Positions 35,139 to 41,960 of a DNA stretch of 64,000 nucleotides are shown in pieces. The notes beneath the pieces are model-generated. The model did no database searches. It was not told the origin of the DNA and saw only the letters and a list, made by a program, of their open reading frames with translations. The first letter of the stretch is position 1; every line of letters starts with the position of its first letter. This DNA comes from an uncultured Candidatus Binatia bacterium (GTDB taxonomy: Bacteria; Desulfobacterota; Binatia; UBA9968; JAJDTQ01), in assembly GCA_965213675.1 (NCBI GenBank), contig OZ243916.1:1600001-1664000 (forward strand). Direction: 5' to 3'. The translations under genes were made by a program, and so were the position numbers.

Positions 35139-35456
35139 CCGCCGGCGTGGACGAATTTCGATTCGTCATTCCGGGCTTGACGCCGGATCAAGTCCGGGGC
35201 AGGCTCCGGAATGCAGTAGCGGCGGTGGGGCGCCGCCGCTACTACGAGAGCTGGCAGAAGCACCGCCTCCCCTTCCCCCACCACGACTCCGTCCACCCCG
35301 AACGCCGCTGGGGCTCCGCCACGCCACCTACGACGACATGCTCTTCGTGAACGACTGGCCCAACTACGAAGAGGAATGGGACCGGGGCTCGCGGGAGGGG
35401 CTGAAGGCCTGCGTGACCAGCGGGTAGGACGGCATCCGAGGTCGCCCCCTTAACCC

Positions 35457-35577
35457 TTCAATCAGTCGGACCTAAATATTCAATTGGTCGGTCATAGAGC
35501 TTCAATTGGTCGTCTCTTGACTTTCCATTGGTCGGTCATTAACCTTCAATCAGTCGTATTTGTACGTCAAATAGTTG
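35457..35577. repeat. Array of 12-bp cores (TTCMATYRGTCG) with 10-bp variable spacers, 22-bp period
   Basis: Cores start at 35457, 35479, 35501, 35523 and 35545; a degenerate sixth starts at 35566. Confidence 0.92.
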
Positions 35578-35590
35578 GAGAGGTGCAGAC

Positions 35591-36811
35591 GTGTATCCTC
35601 GTTTTATCGAAAACCGCGTCAATGACGCGTTGACCTATACACGGGTAGTGCTCATATCCGGCCCGCGACAGTCCGGGAAGACGACGCTGGCCAGACATAT
35701 CGCAGGCGGCAAGATCCCGTTCCTGGACCTCGATGACCAAACCACCCTGGAGACGGCCCTAGCCGATCCAGTGGGATTCATACGCGGCCTCGATCGGGCT
35801 GTTATCGACGAGGTTCAGCGTGCGCCCGACCTCCTTCTGGCCATCAAGATGACTGTCGATACCGACCCGAGGCCCGGCCGCTTTTTGCTCACCGGGTCCG
35901 CGAATCTCATGACCGTGCCACGGGTGTCCGATTCGCTTGCAGGCCGAATGAAGGTCGTGCGCCTCTTGCCCTTGGCACAGGCAGAGTTGAAAGGGAGTCC
36001 ATCCACCTTTCTCGATATGGCCTTCAAAGGCCAAGTGCCCAAGACCGGCGACGTCGTGGTCGGAACCGACTTGATCGAAGAGGTCCTTGCCGGCGGTTAT
36101 CCGGAAGCTCTTACCCACTCCCGTTGGAACACCCGGCGCGACTGGTATCTCGACTACATCGAGGCCATCGTTCAACGAGATGTCCGTGACATCGCCCAAT
36201 TTGAGAAAGTTCCGTTGATGCCGAGGCTCTTGCGCGTTCTCGCGGAGCACTCCGGACAACTCGTCAACTACTCCGGCTTCGGCGCACCGTTGGGAATGAA
36301 TCATTTCACCACCCGAAGATACACTGGATTATTCGAGAGTCTGTATCTCCTGTGCAACCTGCAACCCTGGTTCACCAATACGCTCAAGCGGCTCACCAAG
36401 ACACCGAAGCTGCACTTCCTCGATGCAGGACTGCTTGCGGCCTTAAGGGACATCACCCCCGCCCGCGTGAAGAAAGACAGGGCGCTGTTCGGACCGGTCC
36501 TGGAGACTTTCGTTCTTGCTGAGTTGCTGAAACTGGCCAATTGGTCGGACGACCGGTACGACTTCTCGCATTTCCGAGACAAGGAGCGGAAAAAGGTCGA
36601 TATCGTCATGGAGGACCGTCGCGGCCGCGTCGTGGGAATCGCGGTCAAGGCCTCCGCCACCGTGACCGCCCGGGACTTCGCCGGCCTCCGCTGCCTGTCG
36701 GAAGCCTGCGGCGACCGGTTCGTGCTGGGGCTGGTCCTCCACGACCACGAACATGTCGTGCCCTTCGGCGAGCGCTTGGTCGCCGCACCGATCTCTGCGC
36801 TGTGGTCGTGA
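35591..36811 (+). CDS. AAA+ ATPase (AAA_14) with DUF4143 domain
   Basis: GPRQSGKTT, IDEVQR, LLTGS, SLAGR, KTPKLHFLDAG; GTG start with RBS GGAGAGG. Confidence 0.92.
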   Translation: MYPRFIENRVNDALTYTRVVLISGPRQSGKTTLARHIAGGKIPFLDLDDQTTLETALADPVGFIRGLDRAVIDEVQRAPDLLLAIKMTVDTDPRPGRFLLTGSANLMTVPRVSDSLAGRMKVVRLLPLAQAELKGSPSTFLDMAFKGQVPKTGDVVVGTDLIEEVLAGGYPEALTHSRWNTRRDWYLDYIEAIVQRDVRDIAQFEKVPLMPRLLRVLAEHSGQLVNYSGFGAPLGMNHFTTRRYTGLFESLYLLCNLQPWFTNTLKRLTKTPKLHFLDAGLLAALRDITPARVKKDRALFGPVLETFVLAELLKLANWSDDRYDFSHFRDKERKKVDIVMEDRRGRVVGIAVKASATVTARDFAGLRCLSEACGDRFVLGLVLHDHEHVVPFGERLVAAPISALWS

Positions 36812-36904
36812 CCGAGCACCATGGCTCCGCACGCCTGTACCTGGCAACCGGGTGATCCCGCACCGCCCAGTAGGAAAAAACGAAGAGAGGTCACGACACT
36901 CCGA

Positions 36905-38143
36905 ATGATCAAAGGCCAGCAGCACTGGAAGTTCACTTGGTCCCGGGACGCAATACTTGCGGCCTTCCTTCTCCTCCTGACCGTCCTCTCTCTTCACGGC
37001 GCAGTGGATCTCTTCGCCTACGCTTTACTAGCCGAGACCACAGCCGAATCCCTGGGCATCTATGCCTTGTCCAGGAGCATCAATGCCGGCATTTCCGTAT
37101 TTCAGAGCACCCAATTCGGCGTGGGCATCACCGTACAGTTGGGTGAGTTGCTCGATCCAATCAACGACGCCGTCGAAAGGCTCTCTGCTATTATGGTCTG
37201 GGCCATCGGTTCGCTGTTGCTCCAGCGTTTGGTGCTTGAAGTTACCTCAACGGCGATATTTGAGTGGAGTTTCTTCTGCATCGGTGTCGCAACATCGGCG
37301 CTCCTGCTCGTCTCGGCATGGCACCGGTGCCGAGAGCTGGTTCGCATCAGGCTCCACGTCACGGAAAGCGGCCTCAACCGCTGTCGCGGCCTGCTGATTC
37401 GGGTGTTCGTCGTCGCGGCCATCATCCGCTTCATCGTCCCGGTATTCGTCATCACCAGTTCGCTGGCCTCCGAAATGTTCGTCGGGGCAACCGTCCAGGA
37501 GCAGCGCGACCGCTTGTCCGCATTCAGCGCCGACATCGGCGTGGACCCAGGCTTGCCGCTCGTCACCGATGAAGACCTTGAGAGCCAACGGGCTGAGACG
37601 TCGGCCAAGTTGGACGATTTGGAGGACTCTCTGGCGCAACACCGTCGCGAGACCCAGCACCTCGACGACCAAATCCGGAAGCTGCGCGAGGCGGTCGGCT
37701 GGTGGCGCAGTCGAGCGCCCGAGTTCCTTGGCGGTGTCCCCCCCAGCAAGGAACTGTCAGAGGCCATGGCTACACGGGAACAAATCGGCGACGCACTGGA
37801 GGGCATCCTCCAGAGACAAATCGAGCGAGGTAGGCAGGACCTTCAATGCATCGAGAGACGCCTTGCCGGCGACACTTGCGATTCGCTGTTTGACAAGTTC
37901 ACCGCCGCCGGCAAGACTCGGTACGCCCAGATGTTGACGATCGTTGACAAGTCAAGCCGAATGGTGACGAGTATCGCCCGGCTTGCGATCGCGATCGCCG
38001 TCAAGAACATTCTGTTCCCCATCGTTTTCCTGATGATCGCCCTGAAGTACGGCCTGCCCTTCATCCGGTACGCCGTACGAAAGAGCTACGCTTGGGAGCG
38101 GAACCTGAAGGAACTGCCAAATTCACTGAGGCAACTGGATTGA
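36905..38143 (+). CDS. Hypothetical membrane protein with coiled-coil region
   Basis: Long ORF with several TM helices and a heptad-rich central segment. Start uncertain (36821 or 36905). Confidence 0.75.
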   Translation: MIKGQQHWKFTWSRDAILAAFLLLLTVLSLHGAVDLFAYALLAETTAESLGIYALSRSINAGISVFQSTQFGVGITVQLGELLDPINDAVERLSAIMVWAIGSLLLQRLVLEVTSTAIFEWSFFCIGVATSALLLVSAWHRCRELVRIRLHVTESGLNRCRGLLIRVFVVAAIIRFIVPVFVITSSLASEMFVGATVQEQRDRLSAFSADIGVDPGLPLVTDEDLESQRAETSAKLDDLEDSLAQHRRETQHLDDQIRKLREAVGWWRSRAPEFLGGVPPSKELSEAMATREQIGDALEGILQRQIERGRQDLQCIERRLAGDTCDSLFDKFTAAGKTRYAQMLTIVDKSSRMVTSIARLAIAIAVKNILFPIVFLMIALKYGLPFIRYAVRKSYAWERNLKELPNSLRQLD

Positions 38144-38211
38144 GACACCGTCAGAGCCACAAGCCAGGACCGGCAACAAACGAGGTGAACACGGCCCCCC
38201 AAGGGGTACGC

Positions 38212-38358
38212 GAAATCGTCGAATCCGTGCGTAGAGGCCTCGCCGAAGCAAAGGTCCCAGGCAATTGCGACTTGGAGGCCCTGCTATCCGAAATGCCCTC
38301 GGATTACCAGCCCGAAGAACTCGACTGGGGGCCACCCACCGGGAAAGAAGTCTGGTAA
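38212..38358 (+). pseudogene. C-terminal remnant of MazE/ChpS antitoxin
   Basis: DLEALLSEMP..YQPEELDWGPPTGKEVW resembles the MazE C-terminus. There is no AbrB N-terminus and no mazF. Confidence 0.65.
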
Positions 38359-38383
38359 GCGGCCCGGTCATCAGGGCACAGCC

Positions 38384-38543
38384 ATGCCGGAAGACACGAC
38401 CACAGCACTGTTCTTTGAGTTGTTCAGTGGTTGCGGTGCCAGGGACGCGGTGGTGCGCGGAGCGCGTTCCGGGCTCTCGCCCTCGTTCGGGATGTTCGAG
38501 CGCGGGACGCGCGTTCTCGGCATTAGGTGAGGGACCGACCTGC
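38384..38543 (+). pseudogene. Decayed 5' fragment homologous to the methyltransferase at 42033
   Basis: MPEDTTTALFFELFSG versus MPDDTTTALFFELFSG; nucleotide similarity continues ~160 nt with frameshifts. Confidence 0.85.
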
Positions 38544-38548
38544 GTGGC

Positions 38549-39340
38549 CTACTTGGGCCACCACGACCCTGTCCGTCTCGTAAGTTCGGTCTCAAGTTCG
38601 CTCACAGCGAGTGACTTACGCTCCCGAGAAGCGTGGTTTCCTTCTGTTGCGACGAATTCACGCAAATGGCCGACAAGAAACTCGATGATGCGTTCCTTAT
38701 TGCAATCCGGGTTGCCCGCGCAGTAATCCGACAGTGATTTCGCCAACTTTCTGGCCGTGTTGCCCGACACATTGCCCATACATTGTTCTATCGCCCGTTC
38801 TACAAAGTGCGCATTGTAACCCCACTCGTCGGAGTAGTAAGAAACGATACCTTCCTGTTCTTCTCCGCTGATGTCTTCGTCGTCGGACTTTGCAATCCAG
38901 ATACTCAGAGGCAACATAAGCCCCAAAAGCTGATTGGCGATCACGTCCAGTGGCGTGTTGATGTATCTCGCACGCTCGACCCTGGAGTTCTTCCTTACTT
39001 TAACGAGCATCCACCTAAAGCCATAGTACACGCCTCCGGTGAGGGCACCGGCGGCGAGCATCCAGCCTATCGGCGTCGTTGCGGCAGCGCCCAAGCCAAG
39101 CCAAGCGAGAACCCCACTTGATGGAAAGAACGTCGTAGCGACAACTGAGCTCGAAGCGATTATCATTCCACCAGAGGCAGCGCCTACCGTCCCCAAAAAC
39201 AATTCCAGGTTCTCCCCGGATTTCAAGAACCTGCAGGCGTCGTCTCCAACACCGAGGTGCTCCAAGAATATTTCTTCGTTGGCAAGGATTGTGTCGGGTT
39301 GCTCCGTCATCTTGTGACGTACTCCATTTTGGTCGCTCAC
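38549..39340 (-). CDS. Hypothetical protein: Gly/Ala-rich TM hairpin plus possible TerB-like C-terminal domain
   Basis: GAASGG/TTPIGW hydrophobic segment; IAKSDD.IS.EE resembles the TerB AxADG.....E motif. Lower GC than flanks. Confidence 0.65.
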   Translation of the reverse strand: MSDQNGVRHKMTEQPDTILANEEIFLEHLGVGDDACRFLKSGENLELFLGTVGAASGGMIIASSSVVATTFFPSSGVLAWLGLGAAATTPIGWMLAAGALTGGVYYGFRWMLVKVRKNSRVERARYINTPLDVIANQLLGLMLPLSIWIAKSDDEDISGEEQEGIVSYYSDEWGYNAHFVERAIEQCMGNVSGNTARKLAKSLSDYCAGNPDCNKERIIEFLVGHLREFVATEGNHASRERKSLAVSELETELTRRTGSWWPK

Positions 39341-39879
39341 GCCGCCGCATTCAACAGTGCAAGTGGCTGAAGTGCTTCCTTGGCTTCACGGCCGACAGGC
39401 TCATCCATAAGGGCTTTCAGGCCAGCATCCATTTCGTCACCCTGCTCATACTTCCTCGCGTCTTCGTTCGTGCGCTGTGACAACCGATCCTTTACCAATG
39501 CGTAAAGCAACTGGACGGCCTCGAAAAACGGGACAAGTATCGGCGCCAACCCAGGCACAACCATGGGAAGAAGTTTAATTACCAGGCACATGACAACTGC
39601 GAAAGTAAAGTTGGGGTATCGCCGACAGAGATCGAACACGATTTCAAGGATTCGTCTACCGATGTACAGCAGGGCGTTTCCGATCTTCACGGTGACGCTC
39701 ATAAGCGCATCAAGCAATACCTTGATCTCACTGGGAAGTGCCAGATTACCGATCCTCCGCCCCAGCACTCTTCGGGAAACCCTGGGTCTGGCTTCCCGAA
39801 CAACCTGATCCAATTCCTCGACCGATATTTCGAAGGCGATCCTTTCGCCGGTAGCAGGGTTGACGGCTTCAGCCAGCAT
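39337..39879 (-). CDS. Hypothetical membrane protein
   Basis: RBS GGAGGAG, C-terminal hydrophobic segment; stop overlaps the next start (GTGA). Confidence 0.7.
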   Translation of the reverse strand: MLAEAVNPATGERIAFEISVEELDQVVREARPRVSRRVLGRRIGNLALPSEIKVLLDALMSVTVKIGNALLYIGRRILEIVFDLCRRYPNFTFAVVMCLVIKLLPMVVPGLAPILVPFFEAVQLLYALVKDRLSQRTNEDARKYEQGDEMDAGLKALMDEPVGREAKEALQPLALLNAAA

Positions 39880-40412
39880 TGACTCCTCCACGAGCAAGGG
39901 TGCAGTGATCCACTTGGAGTGTCCATACACACACCGTCCAGGGCCGGTCAAACCGATTCTACCCCAATGTTGCAAAAAAATTCGTGGAGAGCGACTCGAA
40001 ACACGGCCTACAAAGCATCATTCCCCAACAACCCCCTCCTTGCACATCCCATCCCACTTGCGTTCCGATCCTCTCCTTGCCTCCAGCTTCTCCAACTTTG
40101 AGGCCTGGTGTTGCGTTCCACGTAGTTCTTTGCCGAGTTGCGCAGGATTTTGTGTGGTCGGCAAGGCGCAATAACGAGCAGTGGCAGGCACCACGCGAGG
40201 AAGACCCCGGTTCAAGCTTGCCCCGGGGCCCGGGGGTGACGTGAGGTGGTCCCGGTATTCTTGACGCATGCCTTTATGACGCGCCGTAGACTCCGGGTCG
40301 TTCTCGCCCAGCACGGGAAGTTCAGGATGACAAGACTCATTGGCTTGACTGGCAGGGCAGACTAGGCCAAGGTAAGTCCTGAGAAGGAACACAGCCGACC
40401 CATCGACTCGCC

Positions 40413-41960
40413 ATGACCAAACTCAGGCTCCCCATCGGCATTCAGACGCTCCGCAAGATTAGAGAACAGAACTGCTACTACGTAGACAAGACGCCGTGGG
40501 TACGTGCGTTGATCGACGAGGGCTCGCTGTTCTTTCTCTCCCGCCCGCGCCGCTTCGGAAAGAGCCTGTTTCTGGACACCCTGAAGGAATTCTTCGAGGG
40601 CAACGAGTCACTCTTTCGCGGCCTTTACATCCACGAAGGATGGGACTGGTCCGTGCGTCATCCGGTGCTGCGGCTGAGCTTCGGCAGTGGCAACTTCAAG
40701 GAGCCCGGCCAGGTCCGTGCGAGCCTCATGGCGCAACTCGACGCGGTCGAACGCCGCACGGGCACAGCATCCCCCTACCCTGCCGCACCGCAACGTTTCG
40801 GCGATTTGCTGGAACAGTTGCACCACCAGACGGGGCGGCCAGTCGTGGTGCTGGTCGACGAGTACGACAAGCCGATCCTCGACACGCTGGACACACCGGA
40901 TATCGCCCGGTCAAACCGTGATTCCCTGCGCGGCCTCTACGGCGTCATCAAGGACTGCGACGCGCACATCCGGTTCGCCTTCCTTACCGGCGTGAGCAAG
41001 TTTTCCAAGGTCAGCCTGTTCTCAGGGCTCAACAACCTCAAGGACCTGACCCTGGATCCGCGCTATTCCGCGGTGTGCGGCTACACCGACACCGACCTCG
41101 ACAGCGTGTTCGCGCCGGAACTGCCGGGGCTGGATCGGGAGCAGATTCGTCATTGGTACAACGGGTACGGCTGGCTGGGGGACGAGAAAGTCTACAATCC
41201 CTTCGACATCCTCTTGTTGTTCGACCGGCGCAAGTTCGAGTCCTGGTGGTTCGAGACCGGCACGCCCTCGTTCCTGGTGGAGACCCTGTTCAAGCGACGG
41301 GTCAGCACGCTGGCCCTCGAAAACATGCTCGGCACCGACGACCTGCTGTCGCGATTCGATGTCGACGACATCGCCACCGAAGCCCTGCTGTTCCAGACGG
41401 GGTACCTGACGGTCAAGGGTGAGCAGGACCTGGGCGGCAAGCCGGTCTATCGACTGGCTTATCCCAATCGGGAAGTACGTGAGAGCCTGAACCGGAGTCT
41501 CCTGGGCCATTTGGTGCAGGACCCCTCGCGCCAGACGGCCAACAGCATTCAACTCTACCGCCTGCTGGAAGGCAACGACTTCGATGGTCTCGGAACTCTG
41601 TTCCAGGCGTTCTTCAGCAGCATCCCGTACCAATGGTACACGAACAATGACATCGCCGAATACGAAGGTTTCCACGCCAGCGTGTTCTACTCCTACTTCG
41701 CCGCGCAGGGATTCGACATCACGGTGGAGGACAGCAGCACGCACGGACGCGTGGACATGGCCGTACGCTTCAACGGCAACGTTTATCTTTTCGAGTTCAA
41801 GGTGGTCGAGATGACTCCCGCGGGAGCGGCCATGGCCCAATTGAAGAACCGGCGTTACGCCGACAAGTACCGCGGCCTCGGCCGGCCCATCTGGCTCATC
41901 GGCATCGAGTTCAGCAAGGACACGCGCAACGTGGCGGCGTTCGAGGTGGAGCGGGGGTGA
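40413..41960 (+). CDS. AAA-ATPase-like protein with C-terminal PD-(D/E)XK nuclease
   Basis: LPIGIQ, YYVDKT, RPRRFGKSL, VDEYDKP, FSGLNNL, GRVD...FEFK, Q....Y. Confidence 0.93.
   Translation: MTKLRLPIGIQTLRKIREQNCYYVDKTPWVRALIDEGSLFFLSRPRRFGKSLFLDTLKEFFEGNESLFRGLYIHEGWDWSVRHPVLRLSFGSGNFKEPGQVRASLMAQLDAVERRTGTASPYPAAPQRFGDLLEQLHHQTGRPVVVLVDEYDKPILDTLDTPDIARSNRDSLRGLYGVIKDCDAHIRFAFLTGVSKFSKVSLFSGLNNLKDLTLDPRYSAVCGYTDTDLDSVFAPELPGLDREQIRHWYNGYGWLGDEKVYNPFDILLLFDRRKFESWWFETGTPSFLVETLFKRRVSTLALENMLGTDDLLSRFDVDDIATEALLFQTGYLTVKGEQDLGGKPVYRLAYPNREVRESLNRSLLGHLVQDPSRQTANSIQLYRLLEGNDFDGLGTLFQAFFSSIPYQWYTNNDIAEYEGFHASVFYSYFAAQGFDITVEDSSTHGRVDMAVRFNGNVYLFEFKVVEMTPAGAAMAQLKNRRYADKYRGLGRPIWLIGIEFSKDTRNVAAFEVERG

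Follow-up and report, generated by a model that had tools for sequence, protein, structure and literature searches.

The closest described system is PDC-S01, in which an ATPase is joined to a PD-(D/E)XK domain. The passages dealing with it place PDC-S01 fourth in frequency among the defence systems of prokaryotes (PMC12988326); most PDCs, according to the same passages, await validation. PDCs were defined as untested candidates, identified by guilt-by-embedding, and the word "repeats" is absent from the text of that work as far as it was available (bioRxiv 2024.01.29.577857). The function of DUF4143 is listed as unknown in the relevant passages of a further paper, where the name COG1373 also appears (PMC3424549). 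STAND and ORC-Cdc6 ATPases in defence are discussed, in the sections considered here, without an array of the kind described below (bioRxiv 2026.10.19.760177, PMC12839542). In the accessible literature on DUF4143, COG1373 and PDC-S01, a scope that leaves supplements and most subscription papers outside, no description of such arrays was found.

Iterons of theta plasmids are direct repeats, spaced at about two helical turns; the P1 RepA promoter lies among its iterons, and Rep is autoregulated. Archaeal Orc1/Cdc6 proteins combine an AAA+ domain with a winged helix, and bind to repeated origin recognition boxes located beside their own gene. FokI, a type IIS enzyme, recognizes an asymmetric site by a winged-helix-type fold, with a C-terminal PD-(D/E)XK domain placed to one side: no ATPase is known in it, it depends on a methyltransferase partner, and its nuclease domain is not known to read bases.

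The locus described here was found in a window of 64,000 nucleotides from the genome of an uncultured Candidatus Binatia bacterium (contig OZ243916.1, assembly GCA_965213675.1). Its features are reported in Table 1, where all coordinates refer to the window. A short array of direct repeats precedes a gene for a protein assigned to the same family as PDC-S01 by both Pfam and PADLOC. The published passages on PDC-S01 mention neither an upstream array, nor an operator, nor a base-recognition code, and the window allele lacks two nuclease glutamates. As with iterons and Rep proteins, repeats at about two turns would overlap the promoter of the protein predicted to bind them, with two DNA-reading elements in adjacent grooves; here, however, there is no Rep domain, an ATPase is joined to a nuclease fold, and the location is chromosomal. 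Orc1/Cdc6 differs from the present protein and array, which feature a C-terminal nuclease fold, strict direct phasing at 22/23 bp, many paralogs with boxes of their own and no sign of an origin. Unlike FokI, finally, the protein contains an ATPase and has no methyltransferase partner among the scanned neighbours.

Table 1. Features of the locus, with coordinates in the window, strand and basis of the assignment.
Feature	Coordinates	Strand	Basis
REP-like hairpin in place of the 5' part of the 464-aa gene, outside the module	35140..35233	.	fold z -3.3
Remaining 3' part of an unrelated gene of 464 aa, outside the module, marking the left context	35234..35427	+	whole gene in congeners
Five direct repeats phased at exactly 22 bp, core consensus YTTCAATYRGTCG	35455..35556	+	sequence, TRF, conservation in homologs
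Predicted sigma70-type promoter: TTGACT (35517-35522), 17 bp containing core 4, TAACCT (35540-35545)	35517..35545	+	sequence
Degenerate sixth core, touching the ribosome-binding site	35566..35577	+	sequence
Shine-Dalgarno-like GGAGAGG	35577..35583	+	sequence
406-aa AAA_14 + DUF4143 protein: STAND-like ATPase, winged helix, PD-(D/E)XK-fold domain	35591..36811	+	Pfam, PADLOC, AF2, fold searches
Predicted winged helix, residues 207-276	36209..36418	+	model secondary structure, co-variation
Residues 324-341 of the nuclease fold, predicted to form a beta-hairpin, with K331 and E335K	36560..36613	+	model, co-variation
E-x-K nuclease motif, here A351-V-K353	36641..36649	+	homolog alignment

An earlier note on this DNA described five cores, each of 12 bp, with four spacers of 10 bp between them, and all are present as written: core starts, checked in the sequence, fall at 35457, 35479, 35501, 35523 and 35545, which confirms the 22-bp steps, and TRF calls the array at period 22/44. 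The sixth core is degenerate and abuts the ribosome-binding site, as had been noticed, but does not keep the 22-bp step, being located 21 bp after the fifth; in the ortholog L002, where it matches better, the offset is likewise 21 bp. Conservation covers a bipartite unit of about 13 bp: in a 14-bp frame whose first base is 35455, positions 1-4 and positions 10-13 form two conserved blocks, about one helical turn apart. Within arrays, conservation is 0.77-0.89 and 0.83-0.91 for the two blocks, and 0.25-0.54, near background, for the spacers. Among five orthologs compared, identity is 0.90 for the core, 0.70 for the spacers and 0.72 for four-fold codon sites: spacers are passed on at fixed positions, and diverge as fast as the neutral four-fold sites do. 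Because of this behavior of its spacers, the array is not CRISPR-like.

The array has a GC content of 0.40, against 0.60 for the ATPase gene and 0.66 for the window, in line with the AT-rich character attributed to the array in a GC-rich genome. Contigs of four public runs, which represent at most three samples of one study, possibly including the source sample, cover the array with 0 differences. The 3.97-Mb contig C1 was scanned for groups of five phased 12-mers, each neighbour matching at 9 or more of 12 positions: a single locus was found at period 22, coincident with the array at 35457, and a single one at period 23, upstream of another DUF4143 paralog.

The array had also been placed just after a REP-like element; in fact, the remnant of the 464-aa gene lies between the two. 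The hairpin has short matches at several sites in related genomes. The 464-aa gene, of which a whole copy is found at L173:141-1535, gives no match in Pfam; it carries a cysteine cluster, CQYWGPDEECRFC, which we take to resemble an atypical radical-SAM motif, and has tandem paralogs in relatives outside the genus (L166, L167). On the other side of the module, positions 36821-41960 of the window form a low-GC hot spot, where three ORFs have no Pfam match and one gene combines AAA-ATPase_like and PDDEXK_9. A fragment without Pfam match at about 38250-38360, likened to genes in L162 and L165, is a probable remnant of a mazE-type antitoxin.

The array is a real, family-wide feature. In a first pass, where periods from 18 to 40 were allowed, 12 of 136 loci were skipped and duplicates were still included, arrays were found upstream of the gene in 58 of 124 loci, the two controls giving 3 of 116 and 1 of 109; the period was 22 in 46 loci and 23 in 12. 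All later counts concern periods 22-23 only, other periods falling outside them. Once duplicates and incomplete genes had been removed, an array was present at 89 of 139 loci (controls: 0 of 129 downstream, 1 of 129 further upstream), while a set of new loci gave 43 out of 60, with 0 out of 59 in the downstream control. Taking all distinct homologs together, 22/23-bp arrays precede 132 out of 199: 58 of the 62 with protein identity of at least 50%, 70 of the 112 between 40 and 50%, and 4 of the 25 below 40%. Cores repeated at about 21-22 bp upstream of AAA_14+DUF4143 homologs, for which a check had been proposed in the earlier note, are found with a 22-bp period in 70 cases and a 23-bp period in 31. 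Arrays consist of 3 to 6 units, at a median distance of 21 bp from the start codon.

The period is clade-specific in the tree, two sister clades featuring 23 bp and most others 22 bp, which suggests that spacing is set by protein geometry. Flanking genes of the homologs, plasmid copies included, differ widely. One clade on rhizobial plasmids (L265, L280, L281, L285) is set apart from other members of the family by a constant neighbourhood: it is located between a strawberry-notch-like helicase or WGR gene and a DUF1173 gene. An order-level search around G348 gave no new loci, and two further viral scans gave duplicates only.

About 15 DUF4143 paralogs are present in the genome. For 4 of the 15, a direct array is found, with a core different from that of the window, and another 4 of 15 have strong palindromes; among 40 controls, one array and no strong palindromes were found. 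Two paralogs, G000:C1:2035609 (minus strand) and C1:1922039, bear 23-bp arrays of their own; the core of the former is within two mismatches of the window core, so cross-binding between paralogs is possible. The distant paralogs G000:C1:2406720, 2511992, 3445486 and 2866225 feature long palindromes at their start, and no direct arrays.

The 406-aa protein scores positive for both expected Pfam domains (AAA_14, PF13173, 1.3e-23; DUF4143, PF13635, 9.6e-41) and, over residues 1-406, for the PADLOC model of PDC-S01 (PDLC04790, E 9.8e-167). Its Walker A (GPRQSGKT) and Walker B (VIDE) motifs are intact, and its closest named relatives are titled Candidatus Binatia. An AF2 model built from 147 sequences has a pLDDT of 93.3; an earlier one, from 20 sequences, was discarded as poor (pLDDT 59.8). 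In the model, the winged helix is formed by helices 207-219, 227-234 and 238-250, followed by a wing extending to 276: the third helix of the HTH, which begins at H238-F239, is the predicted recognition helix. The hairpin listed in Table 1 belongs to the C-terminal alpha/beta domain, with residue 331 in its loop.

A sequence search of the PDB with the protein gave P-loop matches only. Fold searches are headed by two archaeal STAND-like ATPases, PABY2304 (2qen; Z 14.8, rmsd 5.1, 251 aligned residues) and SSO1545 (2fna; Z 14.0, rmsd 4.7, 249 aligned), which also take the first two places in Foldseek; NLR and Avs proteins follow. The match to the two ATPases, at 15-16% identity, covers residues 1-287, corresponding to the ATPase, helical and winged-helix parts, the nuclease-fold domain falling outside. 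Archaeal Orc1/Cdc6 on DNA (2qby) is also found (Z 9.8, rmsd 8.7, 220 aligned), with 2qen, 2fna and the NLRs scoring higher. FokI and Rep are absent from the lists of matches, an absence which, the whole-protein model being the query, is not an exclusion.

Nuclease residues are nearly invariant among 199 homologs: E335 is present in 198, D337 in 198, E351 in 193 and K353 in 195. In the window allele, two of these glutamates are replaced, by K335 and A351 (codons 36593-36595 and 36641-36643), both changes being confirmed in contigs of the four runs; of the ten changes private to the allele, no others fall at conserved columns. With E335 and E351 replaced, the window allele is likely nuclease-dead, while its ATPase and DNA-reading residues, judged from the sequence, are intact. 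The lost glutamates make an active nuclease less credible for this allele, and leave its family origin unaffected. In L001, a relative at 94%, the Walker B glutamate (residue 74) is privately lost instead.

The correspondence between protein residues and core bases was analyzed by rules derived from a first tree, and fixed in writing before hold-out loci were fetched. Trees were built without the tested columns, because kin share states. Frames were registered automatically; eight loci were shifted to the frame of their neighbours, and two distant ones were dropped. The first hold-out provided 32 usable loci out of 60, from clades shared with the training set: K or R at 331 occurs with G10 in 30 of 30 loci, other residues in 0 of 2; K239 occurs with C3 in 7 of 7, V, P, F or I239 in 0 of 19; Q333 occurs with A11 in 8 of 10, against 4 of 22 for the others. 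When all 4788 column-base pairs were scanned for co-change, residue 238 with base 4 ranked first (z 5.9) and 331 with base 10 second (z 4.5, the background tail reaching 4.1), while 239 with base 3 ranked 11th.

A further test was restricted to cases where the nearest relative differs at the column under study, and compared its base with that of the closest among the relatives having an identical residue. For residue 238, the relative with the identical residue gave the correct base 4 in 14 cases and the nearest relative in one, the best result of 406 columns; the corresponding figures are 6 to 1 for 239, 1 to 0 for 331, with one informative case, and 1 to 3 for 333. Within one clade, H238 is found with C and Y238 with T in 20 of 20 loci, with five changes each. 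A second hold-out, from a single clade (11 usable of 15 new loci), agrees with the 331 rule in 5 of 5 and 6 of 6 loci, which correspond to two events only, a loss and then a regain, in step with G10. Each of the clade tests, for 331 and for 238, includes 2 starred branches or pairs.

Tests on phylogenetically independent pairs did not reach significance for 331, 333, 239 or 238, pairs being too few: 331/G10 gave 5 pairs (4.7 same, 0 opposite, p 0.0625), 239/C3 gave 4 (1.6 same), D or G at 238 against G4, in binary coding, gave 9 (2.3 same, 6.5 with no change), and 333 gave 9 (4.7 same, 4.2 unchanged). Two rules were abandoned: Q333/A11, contradicted by the nearest-relative test and not at the top for base 11 in the co-change scan, and the association of S, T or V at 238 with A, to which S and A occurring with G are exceptions. 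A partial-Mantel window scan, which had pointed to residues 321-336 and 239, was replaced by the tree-based tests, since its seed-biased filter had dropped 18 loci.

A helix code, in which residues 238-239 correspond to core bases 4 and 3, is well supported by this co-variation, and a contact of hairpin residue 331 with G10 is likely. The co-variation between core and central HTH-like region, suggested for checking together with the periodicity, is found where the model places the recognition helix of the predicted winged helix, for 238 and base 4. Since core letters change in step with particular residues, the repeats are likely docking sites of the protein: the proposal of phased sites for the encoded ATPase is sustained by this result and by the arrays of the homologs.

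Sigma70-like elements overlap the array, and are predicted to form the promoter of the gene, overlapped in turn by the array sites. TTGAC[TA] is retained in one spacer in 10 of the 10 close orthologs shown, the remaining spacers drifting, and in 22 of 101 loci a core has TTG[AC]C at offset -4. By a simple promoter score, whose weights are ad hoc and whose comparison with shuffles is inflated by AT-rich arrays, the sense strand exceeds the antisense in 79 of 101 loci, and the best site overlaps the array in 95 of 101. A strict promoter scanner reports 0 sites in the window, TTGACT/TAACCT falling below its threshold with 8 matches out of 12.

Taken as a whole, these data make it probable that the array is a cis operator of the ATPase-nuclease gene, bound by the encoded protein, which would repress the predicted promoter contained in the array. 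Each subunit would bind one asymmetric 13-bp core: its recognition helix (238-239) would read the 5' block, bases 1-4, and the hairpin of its PD-(D/E)XK fold (331) would read the 3' block, at base 10, one turn on. The two-turn period would align subunits on one face of the DNA, where the STAND-like ATPase domains of neighbours would meet head-to-tail, so that binding would be cooperative and would depend on nucleotide. Occupied cores would block the overlapping promoter, resulting in autorepression, the likely purpose of which would be to hold a potentially self-damaging nuclease at a low level. The repeated loss, in the genus, of the gene or of catalytic residues is consistent with an enzyme that is costly and restrained. 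A single gene, along with its array, would regulate itself and could so enter defence hot spots and plasmids as one module; an antiviral role is a candidate one, as labelled by PADLOC. Of the functions listed in the earlier note, autoregulation fits best, sigma70-like elements overlapping the array, while self-marking and an origin find no support. As to genome-wide marking, no second array with the window core is present, except before a paralog.

The array may also be seen as a loading or holding platform, where a sequence-specific, ATP-dependent endonuclease is parked inactive, to cut foreign DNA bearing the site or, when released upon infection, host DNA. As the main explanation, this is rather unlikely, although the two are not mutually exclusive. 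The near-invariant nuclease residues, the apparent reading of the 3' block by the nuclease-fold domain itself and the PADLOC listing as a defence candidate are in its favour, as is the fate of the gene in the genus, where it is often lost or inactivated. In congeners, the module occupies a single variable hot spot and decays by deletion: of 20 regions from congeners and relatives, 7 have array and gene, while in 8 (L157, L158, L159, L160, L161, L162, L164, L165) one to three cores are left behind and the gene is lost or cut. The deletions of L160 and L161 begin 6-8 bp after a core, as read by eye; in several loci the mapping script had chosen a chance core in the upstream gene. This hint amounts to two cases, however; a third deletion breaks inside the gene, and four orphan arrays are unmappable. 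Against the platform, the genome shows no depletion of single cores, with 37 seen and 26 expected at one mismatch, and no DNA methyltransferase is found among the six neighbours scanned, the sole related gene being of Methyltransf_11 type; yet a 13-bp site is too rare for either methyltransferase or site avoidance to be needed. The fixed, short distance of the array from the start codon, and the promoter-like elements it holds, point rather to the operator.

Orc1/Cdc6-like initiation of replication or transposition, with the array acting as an iteron-like origin or as the end of a minimal mobile element, is highly improbable. It would account for the 22-bp direct-repeat period, equal to two turns as in iterons, for the fold likeness to Orc1/Cdc6 on origin DNA, and for the patchy occurrence of the family, with 156 plasmid records and several paralogs in the same genome. 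Cognate cores, however, are found within 500 bp downstream at 1 of 91 loci, on each strand, which speaks against the origin or element end proposed earlier; the module, within the genus, stays at one locus; and a Pfam scan of the gene and its six neighbours shows no Rep or transposase family.

A similarly low probability is assigned to the cores being sites of a different, host-encoded regulator, with the residue match reflecting shared ancestry. Such a regulator would explain why orphan cores persist after gene loss, and the pair tests, taken alone, are non-significant. Against it stand the different cores of paralogs within one genome, the advantage of residue 238 over the nearest relative, and the phased pairs of the window core, which are found at two genome sites only, both upstream of DUF4143 genes. 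The exact core occurs 5 times in the genome, 4 of them in the array (0.56 expected). Taken together, core counts, phased pairs and downstream cores fail to support marking of the genome, avoidance of the site, or a role as an element end.

Transcription of the array, followed by processing to very short RNAs of a guide-like kind, is the least likely option: it is suggested by the repeat-spacer look alone and finds no support, given that the 10-bp spacers are passed on by position and drift neutrally, that Rfam gives 0 matches for the array, that no RNA fold exceeds shuffles (z -0.2 and 0.55), and that repeat bases, not spacers, track the protein.

For the operator, the kind of mechanism, an iteron-like autoregulation, is already known; the contribution made here is the residue-base code. 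The array provides each PDC-S01 member with a predicted DNA substrate which, along with point swaps at the paired residues and bases, expected to change specificity, makes binding, autoregulation and cleavage directly testable. The apparent reading of bases by a hairpin of the PD-(D/E)XK fold ties the nuclease domain to the site, and is relevant to the family's mode of action. A more ambitious picture, tentative and on balance doubtful, is that of a family, among the commonest defence candidates, of single-chain, ATP-switched, sequence-specific nucleases which, guided by a two-domain code, would polymerise head-to-tail on their own phased arrays, silencing their genes and being held there, and would cut just 3' of their sites when triggered. 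If this were true, thousands of natural variants would constitute a readable, reprogrammable library of 13-bp specificities.
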